DNA from: an uncultured Dehalococcoidia bacterium
GTDB taxonomy: Bacteria; Chloroflexota; Dehalococcoidia; Lucifugimonadales; UBA3495
Length of the DNA stretch: 34,322 bases
Assembly: GCA_950072105.1 (NCBI GenBank)
Contig: CATMOE010000041.1
Span: 1 to 34,322, forward strand
Reading direction: 5' to 3'
Part shown: positions 8,262 through 18,231 of the stretch, piece by piece
How positions within the stretch are numbered: the first letter of the stretch is position 1
How the letters are laid out: every line of letters starts with the position of its first letter
Translations under genes and position numbers: made by a program
Notes under the pieces: model-generated
Database searches by the model: none
Told to the model about the DNA's origin: nothing
What the model saw: only the letters and a program-made list of their open reading frames with translations

Positions 8262-9218
8262 TTACTGCTTGGCGGAACTTGTCTGACCCGGAGGTTCTTG
8301 CAAGAACTTGAACACGTCGGCATCAGAGGAAAGAATGACGGTGGTTCGCTGATTCATGAACTTCTGGTACGACTCAAGGCTGCGCCGGAAGGCGAAGAAC
8401 TCAGGGTCCCGGTTCAGAGCGTCGGCTAAGATTCGGATGGCCTCGGCCTCGCCGCGGCCTCGCACTTCGCTGCCGATCCGGTCCGCCTCGGCTAGGATAA
8501 TCTCCCTCTGTTTGTTTGCCTGAGCTCGAATTTTCAGATCCTCCTCCTCTCCTTCGGAGCGGAAGCGGGTGGCGATGCGGTTACGCTCAGCCCGCATCCT
8601 GTTGTAGATGGAGTCCTGTACGCGGTCGGAGAAGTCCGCCCGTTTCATCCTTACATCGATAATCTCTACGCCGAATTTCCCTTCTTGGACGCGCTTCTCG
8701 GCCGCTTTGAAAACGTTATCCAGTAGCTCCGTCCGGGATTCGCTGGGTTCGAGTATGGGCAAGCCATCATCGTCGATAACGGGTACGTCGTTCTCGTCCA
8801 GGACGCGCTCGGCGCCGATGATTTCGGTTCTAGTGCTACGGGCAATCTCGTCGCGCAAGCTGGAGGTCACTATGTCGCCCAAGCGGGTCCGGGCCGTGTT
8901 CTCGGTTTGCAGAGTCTTGAAAAACTGCAAGGGGTCGACAATACGATAGCGGGCGTAGGAGTCGATCGTCATGTTCTGCTTCTCGATGTCAGGCATGGAC
9001 ACAGCCGGAGCGTCTATCCGTAAAACTCGCTTGTCGAATCTCAGCACGGTATCCACGAAGGGTGCCTTGAGGAACAGACCGGGGGTACTTGTGACGCTCT
9101 GGGGGTTACCGAACCGGGTTATGATAACCTGCTCGGTGACGTCCACCACGTATAAGGATTGGGAGACAACGATAAGGGCCACCAAGGCTAGTCCACCAAG
9201 AACTACCAATATTTTCAT
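8262..9218 (-). CDS. hflC: FtsH modulator HflC (SPFH domain)
   Basis: N-terminal TM, PGLFLKAPFVD, IYNRMRAER, DPEFFAFRRSLESY; directly downstream of hflK. Confidence 0.94.
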   Translation of the reverse strand: MKILVVLGGLALVALIVVSQSLYVVDVTEQVIITRFGNPQSVTSTPGLFLKAPFVDTVLRFDKRVLRIDAPAVSMPDIEKQNMTIDSYARYRIVDPLQFFKTLQTENTARTRLGDIVTSSLRDEIARSTRTEIIGAERVLDENDVPVIDDDGLPILEPSESRTELLDNVFKAAEKRVQEGKFGVEIIDVRMKRADFSDRVQDSIYNRMRAERNRIATRFRSEGEEEDLKIRAQANKQREIILAEADRIGSEVRGRGEAEAIRILADALNRDPEFFAFRRSLESYQKFMNQRTTVILSSDADVFKFLQEPPGQTSSAKQ

Positions 9219-9264
9219 TTTAGGACTCCTGCGCCATTTTCATAAGCTTTAAGAGGACTGGGCG

Positions 9265-11025
9265 TTACGGGGACTGGCTGGGACCTACCGGGGACTGGCT
9301 GGGACCTACCGGGATCGGGGTGATGCCGTCACGCCCCCCAAGAATAATCACCGACTCCGTGCCTGGTGAGACGATGATCTTGTTGATTCCAGGCAGGATA
9401 GTTTCGATGGCTTCCAAGTAAAGCCGCTGCTGAGTGACCTCGCTGGTCGCGGGGACCTTCAGGTTCTCTCTATTCAAATATTGGACCGTGAATCCGTCAC
9501 CGGCTCTGAGAGTTTCCCCTGCTTGCACCCGGAACGTAACCACATTGGTGCGGGCATCGAAACCGTTTACCGAGATGTCAACGCCATCGGCTTTTCCACC
9601 GTCAGGCCCATTAACCAACTTTATGTCGGCGGCGGAGATTCCGGTTGTGACATTATCGTCCCCGTCGGCGTTGTCGGTATCAAGGACTGGGTTGTTCAAA
9701 CGCATCTCGAAGGGTCCGGTGCCAACCAAGGAGGGCAGCGTTAGGATTTCGTTCCCTAGGTACGCTATGGAAAAGCCGGTGCCGCTGACCAGGGCGCTAT
9801 TCTGGCCGTCATATCCAACGCTGAAGGTACAAAGCACGGCGCTATCGCCATCGGCGGCATCGGCGTTGGTGAACAGGCATTCGGAGCCTTCTCCCAATTC
9901 GGCGCCAATAAGTGTCAAGGAGCTTACCAGGATGTCGATCCCATCCCCGTCAACATCCGGGCCGTCGATCATTGTCACGTCACCCAGGCCGATTCCGGTG
10001 GCAGGGTCGCCGTCACCGTCGGCGTCGTTCGTGTCCTGCAGCACGTTTCCGAGTTCGATGGAATGGTCGCGGAACTGCTCCAGAACCGAGATGAACCGAG
10101 ATGATTCACCACGGGCCCTGGCAACTCGGGCCTGAGCAAACGCTTCGGCTTCCCTCTTGATGCGCTCGGCATCACCCTGAGCCCTTGGGATGATATTGTT
10201 TTTGTAGGCCAGGGCTTCGTTGACCCGGGTTTCTTGCTCCTGGCGGGCGCGCAGCACGTCTTCGAAAGACTCGAAAACCTCTTCCGGAGCCTGGGTCTTC
10301 AGCAGTTGAAGGCTTACTATGTTGATCCCAGTTTGGTAATTGTCCAATATATCTTGAAGCCTGGTCTTGGTGTCCGATTCCACGGCGGTCCGCTGCTCGG
10401 TCAACACGTCTTCAATGCTCCGCTGTCCCACCACTAACCGCAGGGCGGCTTCAGCGGCGTCCTTGAGGGTGCGGCCCTCCGGGTTGCCCGGAGGAATCCC
10501 CCTGGCGTCCTCCCCCGGGTCGTTTACCCGGAACAAGAAGCCCACCAGGTCCTTGATGTCATACTGGACCACCATCTGAACGTCGACGATGTTCAGGTCG
10601 CCGCTAATCATCAAGCCTTCCACCGGGACTTGGACGTCGGCCACACCCTGGTCGGCCCCGCTGCGGAAGCCTAACTCCATACGGCGGGTTTCGGTCACCT
10701 TAATCTTGTCCGTTTTCCCGATAGGGCCAGGCCACCACCAATGGAGACCGGTTTGAGTGACGACCCCCGCAGTTCCTGAGCAAGGCGCGAGAGCCGCGCC
10801 ACAGATCGCGCCGAAGCGGCGCTGGGCCACTTCCTCGCCGGGTCCGATGCGGTATATTCCGGAGGCTAACCATAGGACTGCGATAAGTGCGATCGCGAGT
10901 ACGATTACGCCGCCCACGCCGCCGCCACCTAATCGGGCGGCGATGCTTCCTATGGTGCCTTTGACACCGGCCAACAGTTGGTCAAAGTCAACTTCCGGTT
11001 GACGTGGTCCGCCAGGTTGAAACAT
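9265..11025 (-). CDS. hflK: FtsH modulator HflK with a ~205-aa internal insertion
   Basis: GLHWWWPGPI, MISGDLNIVDVQ, VLRARQEQE, IIPRAQGDA, EVTQQRLYLEAIE; upstream of hflC and near ftsH. Confidence 0.92.
   Translation of the reverse strand: MFQPGGPRQPEVDFDQLLAGVKGTIGSIAARLGGGGVGGVIVLAIALIAVLWLASGIYRIGPGEEVAQRRFGAICGAALAPCSGTAGVVTQTGLHWWWPGPIGKTDKIKVTETRRMELGFRSGADQGVADVQVPVEGLMISGDLNIVDVQMVVQYDIKDLVGFLFRVNDPGEDARGIPPGNPEGRTLKDAAEAALRLVVGQRSIEDVLTEQRTAVESDTKTRLQDILDNYQTGINIVSLQLLKTQAPEEVFESFEDVLRARQEQETRVNEALAYKNNIIPRAQGDAERIKREAEAFAQARVARARGESSRFISVLEQFRDHSIELGNVLQDTNDADGDGDPATGIGLGDVTMIDGPDVDGDGIDILVSSLTLIGAELGEGSECLFTNADAADGDSAVLCTFSVGYDGQNSALVSGTGFSIAYLGNEILTLPSLVGTGPFEMRLNNPVLDTDNADGDDNVTTGISAADIKLVNGPDGGKADGVDISVNGFDARTNVVTFRVQAGETLRAGDGFTVQYLNRENLKVPATSEVTQQRLYLEAIETILPGINKIIVSPGTESVIILGGRDGITPIPVGPSQSPVGPSQSP
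9268..9313. repeat. Perfect 21-nt tandem duplication (CGGGGACTGGCTGGGACCTAC x2) at the hflK 3' end, encoding PVGPSQS x2
   Basis: Identical copies at 9268-9288 and 9289-9309, plus a partial third. Confidence 0.9.
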
Positions 11026-11241
11026 ATTGAATCGTCCTTATACTGGGCTTGAATGAGGATAAACCATGAAAGGGTTGAATTCTGCAACAAGTCAATAGGG
11101 ATTCTATCATCTTCTTGGAGCCGGGAGCCACCTCCAGGCTACTGATATTCGATGATAAATATCTTAGTTAGGGACCCTCCAGCCTACCAGGACCGCGGCC
11201 ATACCTGATTTACCCTCGAACGGTCATGCTGCCGCACACGG

Positions 11242-11270
11242 TTGGGTGCGTTTGATGCCGGCGGTATAAT
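11242..11270 (+). promoter_or_regulatory. Putative sigma70-type promoter for the ORF at 11432
   Basis: TTGGGT-17 nt-TATAAT. Confidence 0.5.
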
Positions 11271-11431
11271 TTCTACGTGCCGTATCAATAAATGGTTCTA
11301 CAAGCGGACCGCGAACGAAGGGAAGCTCATGATCTGCGAAGGTTTTTTTCCGTTCATCCTGAGTTCGCCATAGGACGAGGCAGTCTTTCGCGCTTTAGTG
11401 ATCGAATTAAATCGGTGGGAGGTTTGGACCC

Positions 11432-11728
11432 ATGGCGGACAATGGTATAACTGTGAAATCCGGCGACGGAATGACCCGAGTGGAAGTGACGTGCGGCCAC
11501 CAAAGCGGCCTGATATACGTGGTTCCCGCATCCCGCAGTTGGGTTTGCTCTGAAGAATTGATCCCGGCCCACGCTTTGGCCGGATTCTTTCGGGAGTTGG
11601 TGGCGTTAAAACTTGGCCCAGTGGCGGAACTGATGCAAGATTGGGGGATATATTACCGCCAACTGCCCTTGGCCCTTGAAGAGAACTCCGGCGAATCGAT
11701 CGATCCCGCGGAGGCATCAAAAAGCTGA
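11432..11728 (+). CDS. Hypothetical protein (98 aa)
   Basis: GGAGG RBS, upstream promoter-like site, globular-looking sequence. Confidence 0.7.
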   Translation: MADNGITVKSGDGMTRVEVTCGHQSGLIYVVPASRSWVCSEELIPAHALAGFFRELVALKLGPVAELMQDWGIYYRQLPLALEENSGESIDPAEASKS

Positions 11729-11784
11729 TGCGCTCGTAAAGATGTAGAGCGGACTGGGGAACCTGGTGATGACCCGCGCTTCAC

Positions 11785-13782
11785 TCAGCTGTCAGAGTCT
11801 CCGGCCGCCGGCATTGGATCGCTGGTGCTGGACATAGCCGGCGACGGCGACGGCTGGCCGATGGGCGGTTGGGCGGGCGAGGGCGTCATGGGAGGCGTTT
11901 CCGGCGGGGCGTCCGGTGGGATCGCCGGAGTGCCGGGGTCGTCGCCGATCGCGCCATCGTCCAGCAAACGGACCATGTTGTCACCAGAGATGGTCTCGTG
12001 CTCGATCAGATATTCGGACAGCAGGACCAAACTAGGCTTATTTTCGACGAGGATTTCCTGGGCCCTTTCGTAGGCTAACTTGATCAGAATCCGAACCTCA
12101 TCATCGATTTCCTCGGCTATTTTATCCCCGTAGTCCCGCTCCTCGCTGATCTCCCGGCCCAGGAAAACCATTTCCTGCACCTTGCCGAAGGTTCGAGGTC
12201 CCAAGGATTCGCTCATGCCATATCGTTTGACCATGCTCAGAGCTACCTTGGTCGCCCGCTCGATGTCATTGCTGGCGCCGGTGGTGACTTCGCTGAAGAT
12301 CATTTCCTCGGCGACACGGCCACCCATCATCACGGAAAGCATGTCCCCAAACTGATTTTTGGTCCATAGGTACCGGTCTTCGTCGGGCAGGAGGGAGGTA
12401 TGCCCACCCATATTGCCCCGGGACACGATCGATATCTTGTGCACCCGGTCAGCGTGAGGAAGGTTGTGGGCCACCAAGGCGTGCCCAGCCTCGTGGTAGG
12501 CGGTCATCTCCTTTTCTCTGGGGCTGATGATCCGGCTTTTGCGCTCCGGCCCGCCAACGATCCGGTCCACGGCCTCTTCAAACTCCTCCATGAAGATGGA
12601 CTTCTTGTCGGCGCGTGCCGCTAGAATAGCGGCTTCGTTAACTAGGTTGGCAAGATCGGCCCCGCTGAATCCCGGCGTTTCTTTAGCCAGGTTATCCAAG
12701 GTGACCTCTGGTGCGATGGGCTTGCCGGCGGAGTGAACCTTCAGGATAGCTTCCCGGCCCTTAATGTCGGGAAGGTCCAGCGTGACTCGCCGGTCGAACC
12801 GGCCAGGGCGCAAAAGCGCCGGGTCCAGAATGTCCGGGCGGTTGGTGGCGGCCAGCACGATGACATTGTTGTTGGGCTCGAACCCGTCCATCTCCACCAG
12901 GATCTGGTTTAGGGTTTGCTCACGCTCGTCATGTCCGCCGCCCAAGCCTGCTCCCCGATGCCGCCCAACGGCGTCGATCTCATCGACAAACACGATACAA
13001 GGAGCGTTCCGTTTGGCTTGGTCGAACAGGTCCCTTACACGGGCCGCGCCTACGCCGACGAACATCTCTACAAATTCGCTGCCGCTGATGTGGAAGAAGG
13101 GGACACCCGCTTCCCCGGCAACGGCTCGGGCTAGCAGGGTCTTACCGGTGCCTGGCTGACCTACCAATAGCACTCCCTTGGGAATCCGGGCTCCAAGGGA
13201 AAGGAATCGCTCAGGGTACCTTAGGAACTCAACAACCTCTTGCAGTTCGGCCTTAGCTTCTTCCACCCCGGCAACATCGGCGAAGGTAACGCCAGGGCGG
13301 TTCGGGGCCGCCATGCGGGCCCGGCTACGCCCAAAGCTCATCGTCTGATTATTGCTTCCCTGGGCTTGGCGCATCATGAACAGGATCAATCCGCCAAAAA
13401 TGATTAAAGGCAGGAAGTTCAGGAGGAGCCCCAACAAACTGCTTAGACCGCTGGAACCTTCGAATGTGACCGAGACTCCGCTGGGAGGGCCGATCTCAAC
13501 GCCACTCTCAACTAACAGGTTGATGACGTCCGTATCACTGCCCATGCGGCTGTAAAGCCGGTCGCTCCCGACCCGGCTGCTAACGTTTGGGGTTATGGTG
13601 AGTTTTCTGCCGTCGACGGCAATCTCACGAATCTCGTCGTTCTTGGCCATGGCGACGACCGTGGTTAGGGGCACGTCGTTGCTGGCCCCAAAGCTGGGCA
13701 GGAGCGTATAGAAGATTACAATCACTCCCACAATTACCAGGAGGTAAACGACGCCATTTCGTAACCAACGGTTCTTGCCCAT
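11785..13782 (-). CDS. ftsH: ATP-dependent zinc metalloprotease FtsH
   Basis: Two TMs, GQPGTGKT Walker A, FVDEID Walker [21 protein letters not shown] second region of homology, HEAGH zinc motif; Pro-rich tail. Confidence 0.98.
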
Positions 13783-13858: not shown

Positions 13859-14084
13859 AGTATATCGATTAGATACATTGAAGCACTATTCAGGTTCACC
13901 TGATGTGATTAAAGCGCCGTCAGGAATAACAGGATGGTGTAGAATGCAATCTGGACGAATCAAGGTCTAGTTGGCGGTGATGCGATGAACCTCTTTGATG
14001 GTTGGGCGCATCTAAGTTTAACGTTTTACCCCGGTGGTGCAAAGCCGCAGGTTAGACCAGAAAATTCATTGATTGAGGTGCGCT

Positions 14085-14930
14085 ATGGCAGAGTATTCTC
14101 ACCCAGAATCCCTGGTGACCACGGATTGGGTTGCCGAACATGGAAATGACGCCAATGTTCGGTTAGTGGAGGTGGACGTTGACACATCGGCCTATGACGA
14201 AGGACACATCGCCGGGGCCGTTGGTTGGAATTGGCAGTCTCAGTTGCAGGCGTCATTGCGCCGGGACCTTATCAGTGGGCCGGAATTGGAGGCGCTGCTG
14301 GGTGTCGCTGGAATAGACAACAATACGACCGTGATACTTTACGGCGACAACAACAATTGGTTCGCCGCGTGGGCGTTCTGGCAGCTTAAGTACTATGGGC
14401 ATGGCGACGTACGCCTGATGAACGGCGGCCGGGCCAAATGGGTCGCCGATGGCCGGCCTCTGACCACCGACGCCGCATCCCATGCGGCCAAGTCCTACCG
14501 GGCAAGTGAGCCGAACCAGGACATCCGTGCTTACCGTGACGCCGTTTTGGGCGCGGTTTTCGCCAGCAGCGTTGCATTGGTGGATGTTAGAGCGCCCGCC
14601 GAATATAGCGGTGAGTTGCTGGCGCCGGCCAACCTTCCCCAAGAGGGTTCCCAGCGCGGCGGCCACATCCCGGGCGCGGCCAACGTTCCCTGGGGACAGG
14701 CCGTAAACGAAGACGGCACCTTCAAGTCGGCCGATGAGTTGACCGCTCTTTACGGTGGCAAGGGGATAGACGGCAGCAAGGAAACCATTGCCTATTGCCG
14801 CATCGGTGAGCGTTCGTCTCACACCTGGTTCGTTCTGACCCAGCTACTTGGGCACCAGAACGTGCGCAACTACGACGGCTCTTGGACAGAGTGGGGCAGC
14901 ATCGTCAATGCCCCGATTGAAAAGCCGTAG
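14085..14930 (+). CDS. Tandem-domain rhodanese / thiosulfate sulfurtransferase (CysA2/SseA-like)
   Basis: GHIAGAVGWNW, GHIPGA, YCRIGERS active-site loop, NYDGSWTEWG; GAGGTG RBS before ATG 14085. Confidence 0.93.
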   Translation: MAEYSHPESLVTTDWVAEHGNDANVRLVEVDVDTSAYDEGHIAGAVGWNWQSQLQASLRRDLISGPELEALLGVAGIDNNTTVILYGDNNNWFAAWAFWQLKYYGHGDVRLMNGGRAKWVADGRPLTTDAASHAAKSYRASEPNQDIRAYRDAVLGAVFASSVALVDVRAPAEYSGELLAPANLPQEGSQRGGHIPGAANVPWGQAVNEDGTFKSADELTALYGGKGIDGSKETIAYCRIGERSSHTWFVLTQLLGHQNVRNYDGSWTEWGSIVNAPIEKP

Positions 14931-14984: not shown

Positions 14985-15020
14985 GAAGAGGGCGGGATAA
15001 TCTCCCGCCCTCTTCTTTGG
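14985..15020 (+). terminator. Intrinsic terminator after the rhodanese gene
   Basis: 13-bp perfect stem GAAGAGGGCGGGA / TCCCGCCCTCTTC, 5-nt loop, short T tail. Confidence 0.75.
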
Positions 15021-15028
15021 TATTCCAT

Positions 15029-15104
15029 GTAACAACAGTTTTACAAACTGGCAACATTGCCGTAACAATTCGGCAATCTTTGCGTAACAAGCATGATCTA
15101 GGAT
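15029..15104 (+). promoter_or_regulatory. Six 11-bp-phased GTAAC-like boxes plus a putative -10 (TAGGAT) upstream of amtB
   Basis: GTAAC 15029, TTTAC 15040, GCAAC 15051, GTAAC 15062, GCAAT 15073, GTAAC 15084. Confidence 0.75.
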
Positions 15105-15130: not shown

Positions 15131-16486
15131 ATGTTACGCAGATTGTTACCAGTAACGGTGGCCGGGTTGTTGGCGGCGAGTGTCCTTGCCGGATACAACG
15201 TCGTTTTTGCCCAGGAAATCACCTCAGACGCGAAGAATCTTGACCAAAGCGCGAACACCATATGGATGTTCGGCGCTTTTTTGGTGTTTTTCATGCAGGC
15301 CGGGTTCGCTTTTCTTGGGGCCGGCCTGATACGTGGCAAGAATACGGTCAACTACATGACGAAGAGCTTCTTGGACTTTGCCATGGCGTCTCTTTCCTTC
15401 TGGGCGTTCGGGTTTGCTTTGATGTGGGGAACGTCGGCTTTGGGAATCGCCGGGACCACTAATTTCTTCCTAACCGACGCTGCCAAAGGCCAGAATTACG
15501 TTGACTGGGTCTTCCAGATGGTGTTCGCCGCGACGGCCGCGACCATCGTTGCCGGCGCGGTGGCCGAACGAACGAAAACTCAAGCTTATCTCGCGTACAG
15601 CTTCATGATTGGGGCAATCATATATCCCGTCTATGGCCACTGGGTTTGGGGAGGCGGCTGGCTGGGCGCAGATGCGGGTTTGTTGGTTAGCATCGGTCTC
15701 CCGGCAGCCAAGGATTACGCCGGTTCCGGCGTGGTGCATGCCGTTGGCGGCTTCGTAGCCCTGGCCGGGGCGGCCGTTGTGGGTCCCCGCATCGGAAAGT
15801 ACAACGCCGACGGCTCCGCCAATACGTTATTGGGCCATAGCGTGCCCTTTGTGGTCATTGGGACCTTCATCCTGTTTTTCGGATGGTTCGGGTTCAATAT
15901 CAACACCGGCGACTCAATAGGGTTGAACGCTATCAACACTCTTCTGGCGGGCGCCACCGGGTCAGTTGTGGCAATGTACATCGTTCTGGTGCGCACCGGA
16001 AAAACCGATGTTCTGGTGGCCTGCAATGGCGCTCTGGCGGGACTGGTGGGCATCACGGCGCCGGTGGCCTTTGTGGAACCATGGTCCGCTGTAGTCATCG
16101 GTGCTATCGCCGCGCCGATAATGCTGACATCGGTCAGCGTGATAGAAAAGGTCTTCAAGATTGACGACCCGGTTAGCGCTATCTCGGTGCACGGCACCAC
16201 CGGCCTATGGGGCTTGCTGGCTGTAGGGATATTCGCCAACGGCAACAATGGTGTGTCCGGCCTGGTTGCGGGAAATGCCCTGCAGATCGTCTCACAGTTG
16301 ATAAGCATGGGCGTGGTGTTGGTTTGGGCCTTGGGCACCGGCTTCGCGCTCTTCCTTGCCTTGAAATACGGAATGGGCGTTCGCGTAACCGAGGAGGAAG
16401 AACTTGGAGGGCTGGATATGCCTGAACACGGCCTGCAAGCCTATCCAATAGACGCCCAGGTATCTGGAACGGGTGGTAGTGGTTAG
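15131..16486 (+). CDS. amtB: Ammonium transporter Amt
   Basis: FFMQAGF, FQMVFA, GAVAER, DYAGSGVVH, WFGFN, DDPVSAISVHG (both pore His present); GAGGAG RBS before ATG 15131; signal-peptide-like N-terminus. Confidence 0.97.
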   Translation: MLRRLLPVTVAGLLAASVLAGYNVVFAQEITSDAKNLDQSANTIWMFGAFLVFFMQAGFAFLGAGLIRGKNTVNYMTKSFLDFAMASLSFWAFGFALMWGTSALGIAGTTNFFLTDAAKGQNYVDWVFQMVFAATAATIVAGAVAERTKTQAYLAYSFMIGAIIYPVYGHWVWGGGWLGADAGLLVSIGLPAAKDYAGSGVVHAVGGFVALAGAAVVGPRIGKYNADGSANTLLGHSVPFVVIGTFILFFGWFGFNINTGDSIGLNAINTLLAGATGSVVAMYIVLVRTGKTDVLVACNGALAGLVGITAPVAFVEPWSAVVIGAIAAPIMLTSVSVIEKVFKIDDPVSAISVHGTTGLWGLLAVGIFANGNNGVSGLVAGNALQIVSQLISMGVVLVWALGTGFALFLALKYGMGVRVTEEEELGGLDMPEHGLQAYPIDAQVSGTGGSG

Positions 16487-16527: not shown

Positions 16528-16580
16528 GTAACAAAGAATTAACAATTCCGCAAAGTCTATGTAACACCTTTGAGTAAAAT
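16528..16580 (+). promoter_or_regulatory. Four 11-bp-phased GTAAC-like boxes plus -10 (TAAAAT) upstream of the small ORF
   Basis: GTAAC 16528, TTAAC 16539, GCAAA 16550, GTAAC 16561; TAAAAT at 16575-16580. Confidence 0.75.
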
Positions 16581-16616
16581 AGAAGATAGGAAATGATTAA
16601 GAGGAGGGTCCAACCT

Positions 16617-16697
16617 ATGGAGATAATCATCGCGGGAGCAGCGTTCGTGGGATTGTTCAGTCTATTCGTGGTGCTTCCCAAGAAGTTTCTTCGCTAG
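16617..16697 (+). CDS. 26-aa hydrophobic microprotein MEIIIAGAAFVGLFSLFVVLPKKFLR
   Basis: GAGGAGG RBS at 16601-16607, own promoter and terminator, one TM helix followed by a basic tail; shorter than any ORF in the supplied track. Confidence 0.8.
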   Translation: MEIIIAGAAFVGLFSLFVVLPKKFLR

Positions 16698-16740
16698 GTA
16701 ACGATTCTTCTCTAACGATCTCTAACAGAGACTAGTTAAA

Positions 16741-16782
16741 GCCCACGCCAGCGACCATTCGCTGGCGTGGGCCTATTATTTT
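16741..16782 (+). terminator. Intrinsic terminator after the microprotein gene
   Basis: 14-bp perfect stem GCCCACGCCAGCGA / TCGCTGGCGTGGGC, 4-nt loop, TATTATTTT tail. Confidence 0.8.
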
Positions 16783-16893: not shown

Positions 16894-18231
16894 ATGATCA
16901 AGGATTGGGCTGCCGAGCGTGATTTTGTGTTACGTAGCGCCCAAGAGAACGATGTGAAGTTCATTCGGCTCTGGTTTACTGACATTCTAGGCTACCTGAA
17001 GGGCTTCGCCATTACGGTGGAGGACCTACAGGACGCGATGGAGCAGGGTGTTGGATTTGACGGGGCCTCTGTGGAAGGATTCGCGCGGATAAACGAAAGC
17101 GATATGAGGGCCTTCCCGGATCCTACAACTTTCACTCTCCTTCCCTGGCGTCCCCGGCAGAACGCCGTGGCCAGGATGTTTTGCGACATCCGTACCCCCA
17201 ACGGCGACCCTTTCGCCGGTGACCCTCGATTTGTCCTGAAACGCAACTTGGAACGCTTGGCCGGTATGGGTTATACCTACTACGTCGGTCCGGAATTGGA
17301 GTTCTTTTTCTTGAAAGACGCCGATACCCCGGAGCCCCTGGATCGCGGGGGCTACTTCGACCAGCTATCCAGCCAACCGGCCGCCGACCTTCGCCGGGAT
17401 ATAGTTCTGAATCTTGCGGACATGGGTATCCCCGTCAAATACTCTCACCACGAGGCCGCCCATAGCCAGCACGAGATCGACCTGCAATACACCGATGCGC
17501 TGACCATGGCTGACACGGTGATGACCGCCAAGTTGGTGATTAAAGAGCTGGCCCAGATAAAGGGTGTCTACGCGACCTTTATGCCCAAGCCCATGTCCCA
17601 CTTGAACGGATCGGGAATGCATACCCACCAGTCCCTGTTCCAGGGCGATACTAACGCCTTTCACGACTCAGATGACGAACACCATCTTTCGATCGTCGGA
17701 AAGAGATTCATCGCCGGGTTGCTCCGCCACGCGCCCGAAATCACTCTGGTAACCAACCAGTGGGTCAACTCCTACAAGCGTTTGGTGCCCGGCTACGAGG
17801 CTCCGACGTACATCTCCTGGGCCCACGTGAACCGGTCCGATCTGATCAGGGTTCCCGCCTATAAGCCAGGACACGATAGTTCGGTTCGCATCGAATACCG
17901 CGCGCCGGACCCGGCATGCAATTCCTACTTGGCCTTCAGCGCTATGTTGGCCGCGGGCCTTAAGGGCATCGAAGAAGAATATCCGGTGCCCCCTCCGGTG
18001 GAAGGCAACGTGTTCGCCATGTCCATCGAAGAACGGGAATCTCGCGGAATCAAGACTCTGCCCGGAAGTCTCGGTGAGGCGATCGGGTTGGCGGAAGAGA
18101 GCGCATTGCTGCGTGAGGCATTAGGGGATTACACTTTCAATAGTTTTATCAAGAACAAGAAGATCGAGTGGGAAGAATACCGGGCCGTTGTCACCGACTA
18201 CGAGGTCTCCCGGTATCTGCCGATGCTATAG
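16894..18231 (+). CDS. glnA: Glutamine synthetase type I (GSI-alpha/GlnA2-like)
   Basis: FDGAS, GPELEFF, HHE..QHEID, ATFMPKP..NGSGMHTHQSL, NSYKRLVPGYEAP, RIEYRAPDP; GGAGG RBS before ATG 16894. Confidence 0.95.
   Translation: MIKDWAAERDFVLRSAQENDVKFIRLWFTDILGYLKGFAITVEDLQDAMEQGVGFDGASVEGFARINESDMRAFPDPTTFTLLPWRPRQNAVARMFCDIRTPNGDPFAGDPRFVLKRNLERLAGMGYTYYVGPELEFFFLKDADTPEPLDRGGYFDQLSSQPAADLRRDIVLNLADMGIPVKYSHHEAAHSQHEIDLQYTDALTMADTVMTAKLVIKELAQIKGVYATFMPKPMSHLNGSGMHTHQSLFQGDTNAFHDSDDEHHLSIVGKRFIAGLLRHAPEITLVTNQWVNSYKRLVPGYEAPTYISWAHVNRSDLIRVPAYKPGHDSSVRIEYRAPDPACNSYLAFSAMLAAGLKGIEEEYPVPPPVEGNVFAMSIEERESRGIKTLPGSLGEAIGLAEESALLREALGDYTFNSFIKNKKIEWEEYRAVVTDYEVSRYLPML

Follow-up and report, generated by a model that had tools for sequence, protein, structure and literature searches.

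Amt proteins are treated as self-sufficient homotrimers that are controlled from the cytoplasm by PII. KdpF is a single-helix accessory subunit of KdpFABC. Small proteins reportedly act on glutamine synthetase (GS) as well, namely sP26 in Methanosarcina and IF7/IF17 in cyanobacteria. MgtS, MgtU and MgtR are membrane proteins of 28-31 residues that act on the Mg2+ pumps MgtA and MgtB. Proteins of the MgtS type are described as being made together with the transporter under substrate shortage and as either stabilising it or steering its FtsH-dependent turnover (PMC10710835). The same source presents AcrZ as one helix packing on the membrane surface of AcrB, and PII as a soluble trimer of about 112 residues that plugs the pore (PMC10710835). 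In Methanosarcina mazei, the small protein sP36 is tied to Amt and to nitrogen status. This protein of 61 residues is cytoplasmic under limitation, goes to the membrane on upshift and bridges GlnK1 and AmtB1 (PMC10714827).

The locus studied here lies in a window of 34,322 nucleotides (the whole stretch of DNA that was analysed) from an uncultured Dehalococcoidia bacterium. Between amt1 and glnA, it carries a microprotein gene (Table 1). The product resembles MgtS, MgtU and MgtR in size and in its single-helix plan. It differs from them in that no sequence relation was found, the proposed target is Amt, the promoter is of the GlnR type and multiple copies carry their own promoters. AcrZ and KdpF follow the same single-helix plan without a family match, and contact of the microprotein with Amt is predicted. 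A search against curated small-protein families, including MgtS, KdpF and AcrZ, gave no profile match. As compared to the description of sP36, rather than directly to its sequence, the microprotein is an integral helix of 26-50 residues and is bacterial; all members have about 20 consecutive apolar residues, unlike a soluble protein that relocates to the membrane. With GlnK, the microprotein shares the slot between amt and glnA that glnK occupies in sister loci. Unlike GlnK, it has no PII domain (PF00543, about 100 residues) and it coexists with glnK in several loci. The idea of a GlnK substitute found no support, as neither the ORF nor the family has a Pfam match and the gene adjoins glnK in several loci. 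The sole PII match of the genome is on another contig, beside amt2. This PII gene, behind amt2 (L017:1949-2289; G000:C16), is frameshifted near codon 24, which reflects either a pseudogene or an assembly error.

The microprotein gene and its product

An earlier note on this DNA had described boxes, a -10 hexamer, a ribosome site, an ORF and a hairpin, and each of them was found again at the same position (Table 1). The four boxes start at 16528 (GTAAC), 16539 (TTAAC), 16550 (GCAAA) and 16561 (GTAAC), in a phase of exactly 11 bp. Within the 4.08-Mb genome, the promoter pattern common to the microprotein gene and amt1 is confined to these two sites. The alignment with the amt1 promoter stands; the three boxes that had been implied for the latter do not, as it actually has six phased boxes.

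Table 1. Features of the microprotein locus and candidate regulator gene. Positions are those of the window, unless a contig is named.
Feature	Position	Strand	Evidence
Four GlnR-type boxes of the microprotein's own promoter, 11-bp phase, over the -35 region	16528..16565	+	sequence, matrix
-10-like hexamer TAAAAT	16575..16580	+	sequence
Shine-Dalgarno site GAGGAGG	16601..16607	+	sequence
Microprotein gene, 26 aa, one transmembrane helix, F10 and P21 invariant, basic C-tail	16617..16697	+	
Hairpin of 14 pairs followed by a T-rich tail, resembling an intrinsic terminator, possibly leaky	16741..16772	+	sequence, RNA contig
amt1 promoter, six GlnR-type boxes at 11-bp phase	15029..15088	+	sequence; matrix matches of 36.5 and 18.7 bits
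amt1, probable partner; ammonium transporter of the clade that is linked to the peptide and mostly lacks PII	15131..16486	+	PF00909, TIGR00836 above cut-off, trees, co-occurrence
glnA, type I glutamine synthetase; neighbour here, not a constant partner	16897..18231	+	TIGR00653 above cut-off, neighbourhood counts
Candidate GlnR-like OmpR regulator, atypical receiver	G000:C1 about 178900-179590 (L066:1039-1737)		

The gene had also been taken for a stand-alone unit closed by a terminator. The hairpin is present. Since a single RNA contig (16622-17779) runs from the ORF through the hairpin into glnA, the hairpin may not end all transcription. This contig was found in one of four RNA libraries, together with a separate amt1 contig. 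A second library showed a depth of about 2 over the ORF. The contigs of the remaining two (X8, X9) did not cover the ORF, which proves nothing. Being made of contigs, the RNA data support transcription weakly and are silent on strand and level. The locus region was present in marine and vent RNA libraries.

Upstream of amt1, the window carries a rhodanese gene (14073-14930) and a 13-pair terminator (14985-15015). Several relatives have the same rhodanese gene ahead of the locus, among them some that lost amt1 (L128, L129, L138). On the reverse strand, ftsH and then two SPFH/Band 7 genes occupy positions 8262-13782, 1.3 kb from amt1. They could be relevant should the peptide influence the turnover of Amt.

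That the ORF is a real gene, as proposed earlier, is upheld by purifying selection and by a ribosome site conserved in relatives. From the fetched loci, 98 copies were taken, and 74 unique gap-free coding sequences were used for the selection analysis. With these sequences, pN was lower than pS in 2699 of 2701 pairs and dN/dS was about 0.31 (662 unsaturated pairs). Conservation at the three codon positions of the family copies was 0.80/0.84/0.57. Among the 97 copies with enough upstream DNA, a ribosome site (GGAG or GAGG) was present in 94 and a two-box match in 84, mostly 83-90 nt ahead of the start. In a count made without a control run, 51 of 73 family copies had a -10-like hexamer downstream of the fourth box. 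A hairpin was counted in 72 of the 73, also without control, and was therefore not taken as evidence. The same genome contains a 62% identical paralog (G000:C32:38432-38512) away from nitrogen genes; it is free-standing among unrelated genes and has boxes, a ribosome site and a hairpin of its own (G000:C32:38349-38600; L016:5350-5600). The sequence features point to translation of the microprotein.

F10 and P21 are invariant among 132 members. The seven columns of lowest entropy in this set correspond to A6, F10, L13, F14, W/F17, V18 and P21. They lie within a 140-degree arc of an ideal helix, the opposite side being variable. Such a one-sided conserved face is what is expected for a helix packing on a partner protein. 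Position 2 is commonly acidic and the tail is basic, which suggests a topology with the N-terminus out and the C-tail in the cytoplasm. The tail is the least conserved part and counts about five residues after the helix in the window's family. In one lineage variant, encoded away from amt1, the tail has about 20 residues and ends in a conserved PQAAD (L126, L127, L268, L286, L324). Overall, the gene has the features of small membrane proteins: it is a real gene of less than 50 residues with a fixed start, one transmembrane helix and a hydrophobic core.

Nitrogen-type promoter and candidate regulator

The sites of actinobacterial GlnR are described as GTnAC-n6 repeats occurring in fours at amtB and glnA (PMC3087709) and as (t/g)TAAC-n6-G(c/a)AAC in M. 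smegmatis (PMC10704036). Four GlnR protomers are placed around the -35 element, and six sites are reported at amtB (PMC10235972). The boxes of the window likewise come in fours and sixes and overlap the -35 region. They differ in belonging to another phylum, and the second box reads TTAAC. The earlier proposal of a nitrogen-type promoter is supported, as phased boxes of the actinobacterial GlnR type are common to the microprotein gene, amt1, amt2 and gltB. That note had not recognised the boxes as GlnR-type, and the multiple, free-standing copies were out of its view.

A promoter matrix was derived from 64 promoters of other genomes and used at a threshold of 14 bits, with three locally shuffled genomes as a control. 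The microprotein promoter was the top-scoring site in the genome, with 57 bits. Eight sites reached at least 14 bits, as compared to none in each of the three shuffles. These eight rows correspond to the two peptide promoters (four rows, one being a reverse-strand echo), to amt1 (two rows), to amt2 and to one marginal site. The marginal site precedes a gene for a probable PLP-dependent trans-sulfuration enzyme (C46:15810, reverse strand). A two-box match upstream of gltB was detected by blastn (G000:C50:21796-21825, reverse strand). As in a GlnR regulon, 5-bp sites at an 11-bp period are thus found upstream of nitrogen genes, here amt1, amt2, both peptide copies and gltB.

The genome also encodes a candidate GlnR-like regulator (Table 1), whose relatives adjoin amt genes in many loci across the class. 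Its DNA-binding domain gave 98.7 bits against the GlnR domain 8HML, the next isolated domain giving 76.5. At full length, its best PDB matches were RegX3 and MtrA, RegX3 coming first, and no GlnR model was among the NCBIfam matches listed for it. Taken together, the boxes and the DNA-binding domain of the regulator suggest activation under nitrogen limitation.

Range of the family and its link to Amt1

A family profile was built from 16 copies. The microprotein was found in 167 of 200 same-family genomes, with 1-6 matches each, and in 90 of the 99 high-quality ones. Tandem copies were frequent, with a spacing of about 260-310 nt. At the class level, 26 of 301 genomes matched, 5 of which were rejected after inspection; at the phylum level, 36 of 401 matched, with 1 rejected and 2 left uninspected. 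The rejected matches were weak HMM matches in G475, G400, G470, G423 and G288 (class) and in G633 (phylum), and the DNA matches L008 and L015 are not family copies. G438, flagged as unpublished, enters only another tally of 70/301, and none of the conclusions depends on it.

Scanning the species-genome collection with a degenerate motif yielded at least 122 stretches, of which the 80 with flanks were counted and 42 unflanked ones were left out. Seventy-four came from Chloroflexota/Dehalococcoidia records. All of these were small family genes (one, without a start called by the filter, was counted by eye), and they represent 72 distinct loci. The six non-Chloroflexota matches were not small genes of this family. 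The motif-selected sample partly overlaps the G-numbered genomes of the profile searches. These named relatives also point to Dehalococcoidia as the class of the window. The protein library held 215 clusters at 50% identity, and 148 of the 150 listed were 27-85 residues long. When 10 clusters of longer members were looked up, three were named 'hypothetical protein' and seven had no name. Members of 26-27 residues were missed by gene callers or given wrong starts.

Database searches returned no known family. In Pfam, none of 16 members matched at E<0.1, and one of 132 had a lone LapA_dom match at E<=0.01. NCBIfam (best E 0.08 among 16 members) and PDB (best E 0.54) gave no fit, and lone weak PHROGs matches for 3 of 83 members did not make a family fit. 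In the ESM Atlas, one member used as query gave three unnamed clusters of 32-36 residues at 0.80-0.81, to be taken as a lead only. Two apparent N-terminal fusions of the peptide were seen, one to a GmhB-like HAD phosphatase (P0035, 200 aa, a 2-member cluster on short contigs) and one to an unknown domain (P0149, 125 aa); they may be real or due to read-through error. The literature searched contained no description of the family or of a transmembrane Amt subunit; small-protein catalogues in supplements could list members. The microprotein family is real and undescribed, and of the small-membrane-protein/transporter kind.

AmtB and GlnA had been put forward as equally likely targets. The tie to Amt was supported, and GlnA lost its equal standing. 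Of the 72 motif-selected loci, 67 have an amt gene (of the amt1 type in 65) and 47 a GS gene at a distance of no more than 3 kb. Amt occurs without GS in 21 loci, GS without amt in one, which is cut by a contig end, and neither in four. PII is found in seven, six of them behind amt2. Gene order varies (amt1-peptide, peptide-amt1, divergent, convergent) and adjacency is kept. Three divergent types of GS alternate as the neighbour (about 35%, 65-90% and GSII-like relative to the queries). GlnA is not an equally likely target because the GS gene near the peptide changes in type or is often missing and because GS stays when the peptide is lost.

The presence of the peptide and that of Amt1 agree in 191 of 200 family genomes (both 160, neither 31), these counts not being independent since the genomes are kin. 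Seven discordant genomes have the peptide only and two have Amt1 only, one of them at a contig edge. Among the genomes with neither, 5 of 5 tested keep another Amt, and GS adjoins 4 of their 7 Amt loci. In G026 (97% complete, one contig), amt1 and the ORF were lost while both promoters and both GS genes were kept. As compared to its congener G069, the first codons of amt1 are fused to the peptide promoter, and the GS genes are at 88% identity. This double deletion (L144:4250-4780) leaves the amt1 and peptide promoters stacked directly before GSII-GSI, so that GS may be driven there by two GlnR-type promoters.

Within the class, the 29 top relatives of Amt1 other than itself were ranked and their neighbourhoods compared. 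Within ranks 1-16, the peptide is adjacent in 10 (2 of them also with PII) and absent in 6, all from one genus. The 13 relatives at ranks 17-29 all have PII and none has an adjacent peptide; in 5 PII-linked genomes tested, the peptide was found nowhere. In 7 of the 13 PII-linked sister-clade loci the order is amt-glnK-glnA where the window has amt1-peptide-glnA, in agreement with the earlier remark that the peptide occupies the slot of glnK. The peptide-adjacent Amt1 proteins all fall in one clade with a support of 99 in a quick tree of 82 rows, whose careful search is unfinished, and likewise in a second quick tree of 53 rows. Five distant genomes have a free-standing copy, and in four of them an Amt1-clade gene is present at another place. 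Genetic linkage with a transporter gene, a mark of small transporter regulators, is thus found here, and the shared type of promoter would provide for co-regulation.

In Amt1 of the window's family, I-N/G-T/S/P replaces the usual AGS/PGS after FN (window about 15880-15920, after WFGFN). The loop is about four residues shorter there and covers the position of E. coli S219; this alteration may change affinity or substrate. An Amt1 monomer model had a pLDDT of 94. A complex prediction with two Amt1 chains and the cognate 30-residue peptide of G010 scored 0.00 in two runs without controls, and is evidence neither way. A likeness of the peptide to Amt1 leader sequences was dropped, the best HMM score being only 4.5 bits among 112 leaders. 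W56, F58, W91, F123, F210 and Y244 were considered as a binding patch on Amt1. These clade-specific residues were not retained as markers of such a patch because the peptide-less genus shares them.

Several cases depart from the link. Genus g121 keeps an Amt1-clade gene, and the peptide was found in 0 of its 5 genomes. The g121 Amt (L104, L105, L108-L111) has lost otherwise invariant residues, namely the equivalents of F107 and S219, a TM2 Asp and a TM8 Asn. In E. coli AmtB, F107 and S219 have gate and binding roles. Because of these losses, the g121 protein may not be a normal transporter, and is possibly non-transporting or re-purposed. Conversely, in G008, G011, G205, G250 and the fragmented G229 the peptide is present and no Amt1-clade gene was found. 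The copies of G008, G011 and G205 look unusual: the helix contains a Glu, G12 and V18 are altered, and one copy is degenerate. With n=3, these odd copies in Amt1-less genomes are no more than suggestive. In 6 genomes of the class, 3 of other classes and one more, a second subtype is located after amt2 or amt2-glnK, so the target is not restricted to a single Amt clade. In G251 and G011, the peptide adjoins GS, and the fetched stretch contains no amt. All fetched copies of family f107 and the g2 copies seen are free-standing. Finally, one to six peptide copies accompany a single amt1, which a 1:1 stoichiometry does not require.

Possible roles of the microprotein

Contact of the peptide with Amt, whatever the sign of its effect, appears probable from the genomic data. 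Our best reading goes one step further and is held tentatively: the microprotein would be a nitrogen-induced accessory helix of the MgtS/KdpF kind that stabilises or activates Amt1. Under nitrogen limitation, a GlnR-type atypical activator of the OmpR family would bind the four phased boxes and switch on the microprotein together with amt1, amt2 and gltB. The peptide would insert as one helix, with its N-terminus out and, judging from charge, its basic tail in the cytoplasm. Its conserved face would be presented to a membrane protein, most likely the Amt1-type ammonium transporter, to which gene linkage, co-occurrence and co-loss point. As a positive accessory subunit it could stabilise the trimer, shield it from proteolysis or support its activity, and extra promoter-bearing copies would raise the peptide dose. 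The positive role is favoured because the peptide is apparently induced with the transporter, lacks a sensor domain by which an inhibition could be timed and is amplified in dose. Linkage does not tell a positive from a negative effect, and genes can cluster through co-regulation alone.

Several observations would also fit a peptide that binds Amt and restrains it, either as a membrane-anchored brake or as an sP36-like adaptor that, when ammonium rises, recruits to the PII-less Amt1 a PII made elsewhere. The peptide sits in the place of glnK of sister loci, one subtype adjoins amt2-glnK, and the basic tail would face the cytoplasm; in M. mazei, sP36 is described as acting in this way (PMC10714827). 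We consider such a restraint unlikely, since there is no PII domain and the little that extends past the helix is the least conserved part of the peptide. Moreover, the only PII gene found in the genome is broken, perhaps by assembly error, whereas both peptide copies are intact. Another proposal dissociates the peptide from Amt altogether and makes it a nitrogen-starvation effector that acts on a different target in the membrane or on the membrane as such (as a dormancy peptide resembling TisB/type I toxins, or as a protease adaptor), proximity to amt reflecting shared regulation only. Tandem copies with their own promoter and hairpin, as well as free-standing copies, recall the architecture of type I toxin loci, and the peptide is retained in some genomes without Amt1. 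This proposal is nevertheless rather doubtful. The leader is short, at about 30 nt. Apart from the hairpin, neither a conserved antisense element nor a conserved 3' element was found, and the scan gave no minus-strand promoter. Profiles of type I toxin families (Fst, Ldr, Ibs, TisB, Hok) matched none of the 132 members, and one member used as query had no match in plasmids and phages. Presence of the peptide follows one Amt clade rather than the regulon. A closure between the Shine-Dalgarno site and the 3'UTR, seen in the fold of the window, was discarded as it occurs in 24 of 71 copies versus 28-30 after shuffling.

A regulator or membrane anchor of GS would account for the GS genes near many of the loci, for the RNA contig joining the ORF to glnA and for the two genomes where the peptide is beside GS without amt in the fetched stretch. 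GS is, however, a soluble enzyme, and the conserved face lies within a transmembrane helix. With a neighbour of three divergent types that is kept where the peptide is lost, this role is improbable. It is harder still to believe that the RNA, as a small RNA or an attenuator, is the functional product and the ORF incidental. The window transcript does fold strongly (z -4.5), but the codon-position pattern and the dN/dS value given above are those of a coding sequence, the UTR sequence is not conserved, Rfam gave one chance-level match and none near the gathering score, and the downstream gene varies and is often unrelated.

The accessory-helix reading can be extended, as a possibility short of probable, to the whole phylum. 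The single-helix family would then be a dedicated membrane subunit of Amt, the first for Amt/Mep/Rh as far as searched. One Amt clade of Chloroflexota, whose periplasmic binding loop is remodelled in the window's family, would have traded its glnK linkage for this subunit, and ammonium capture would be tuned by amplified promoter-bearing copies. The microprotein family is near-universal in one large Dehalococcoidia family. If the peptide binds Amt, it would represent a new layer of control on ammonium uptake in these bacteria.
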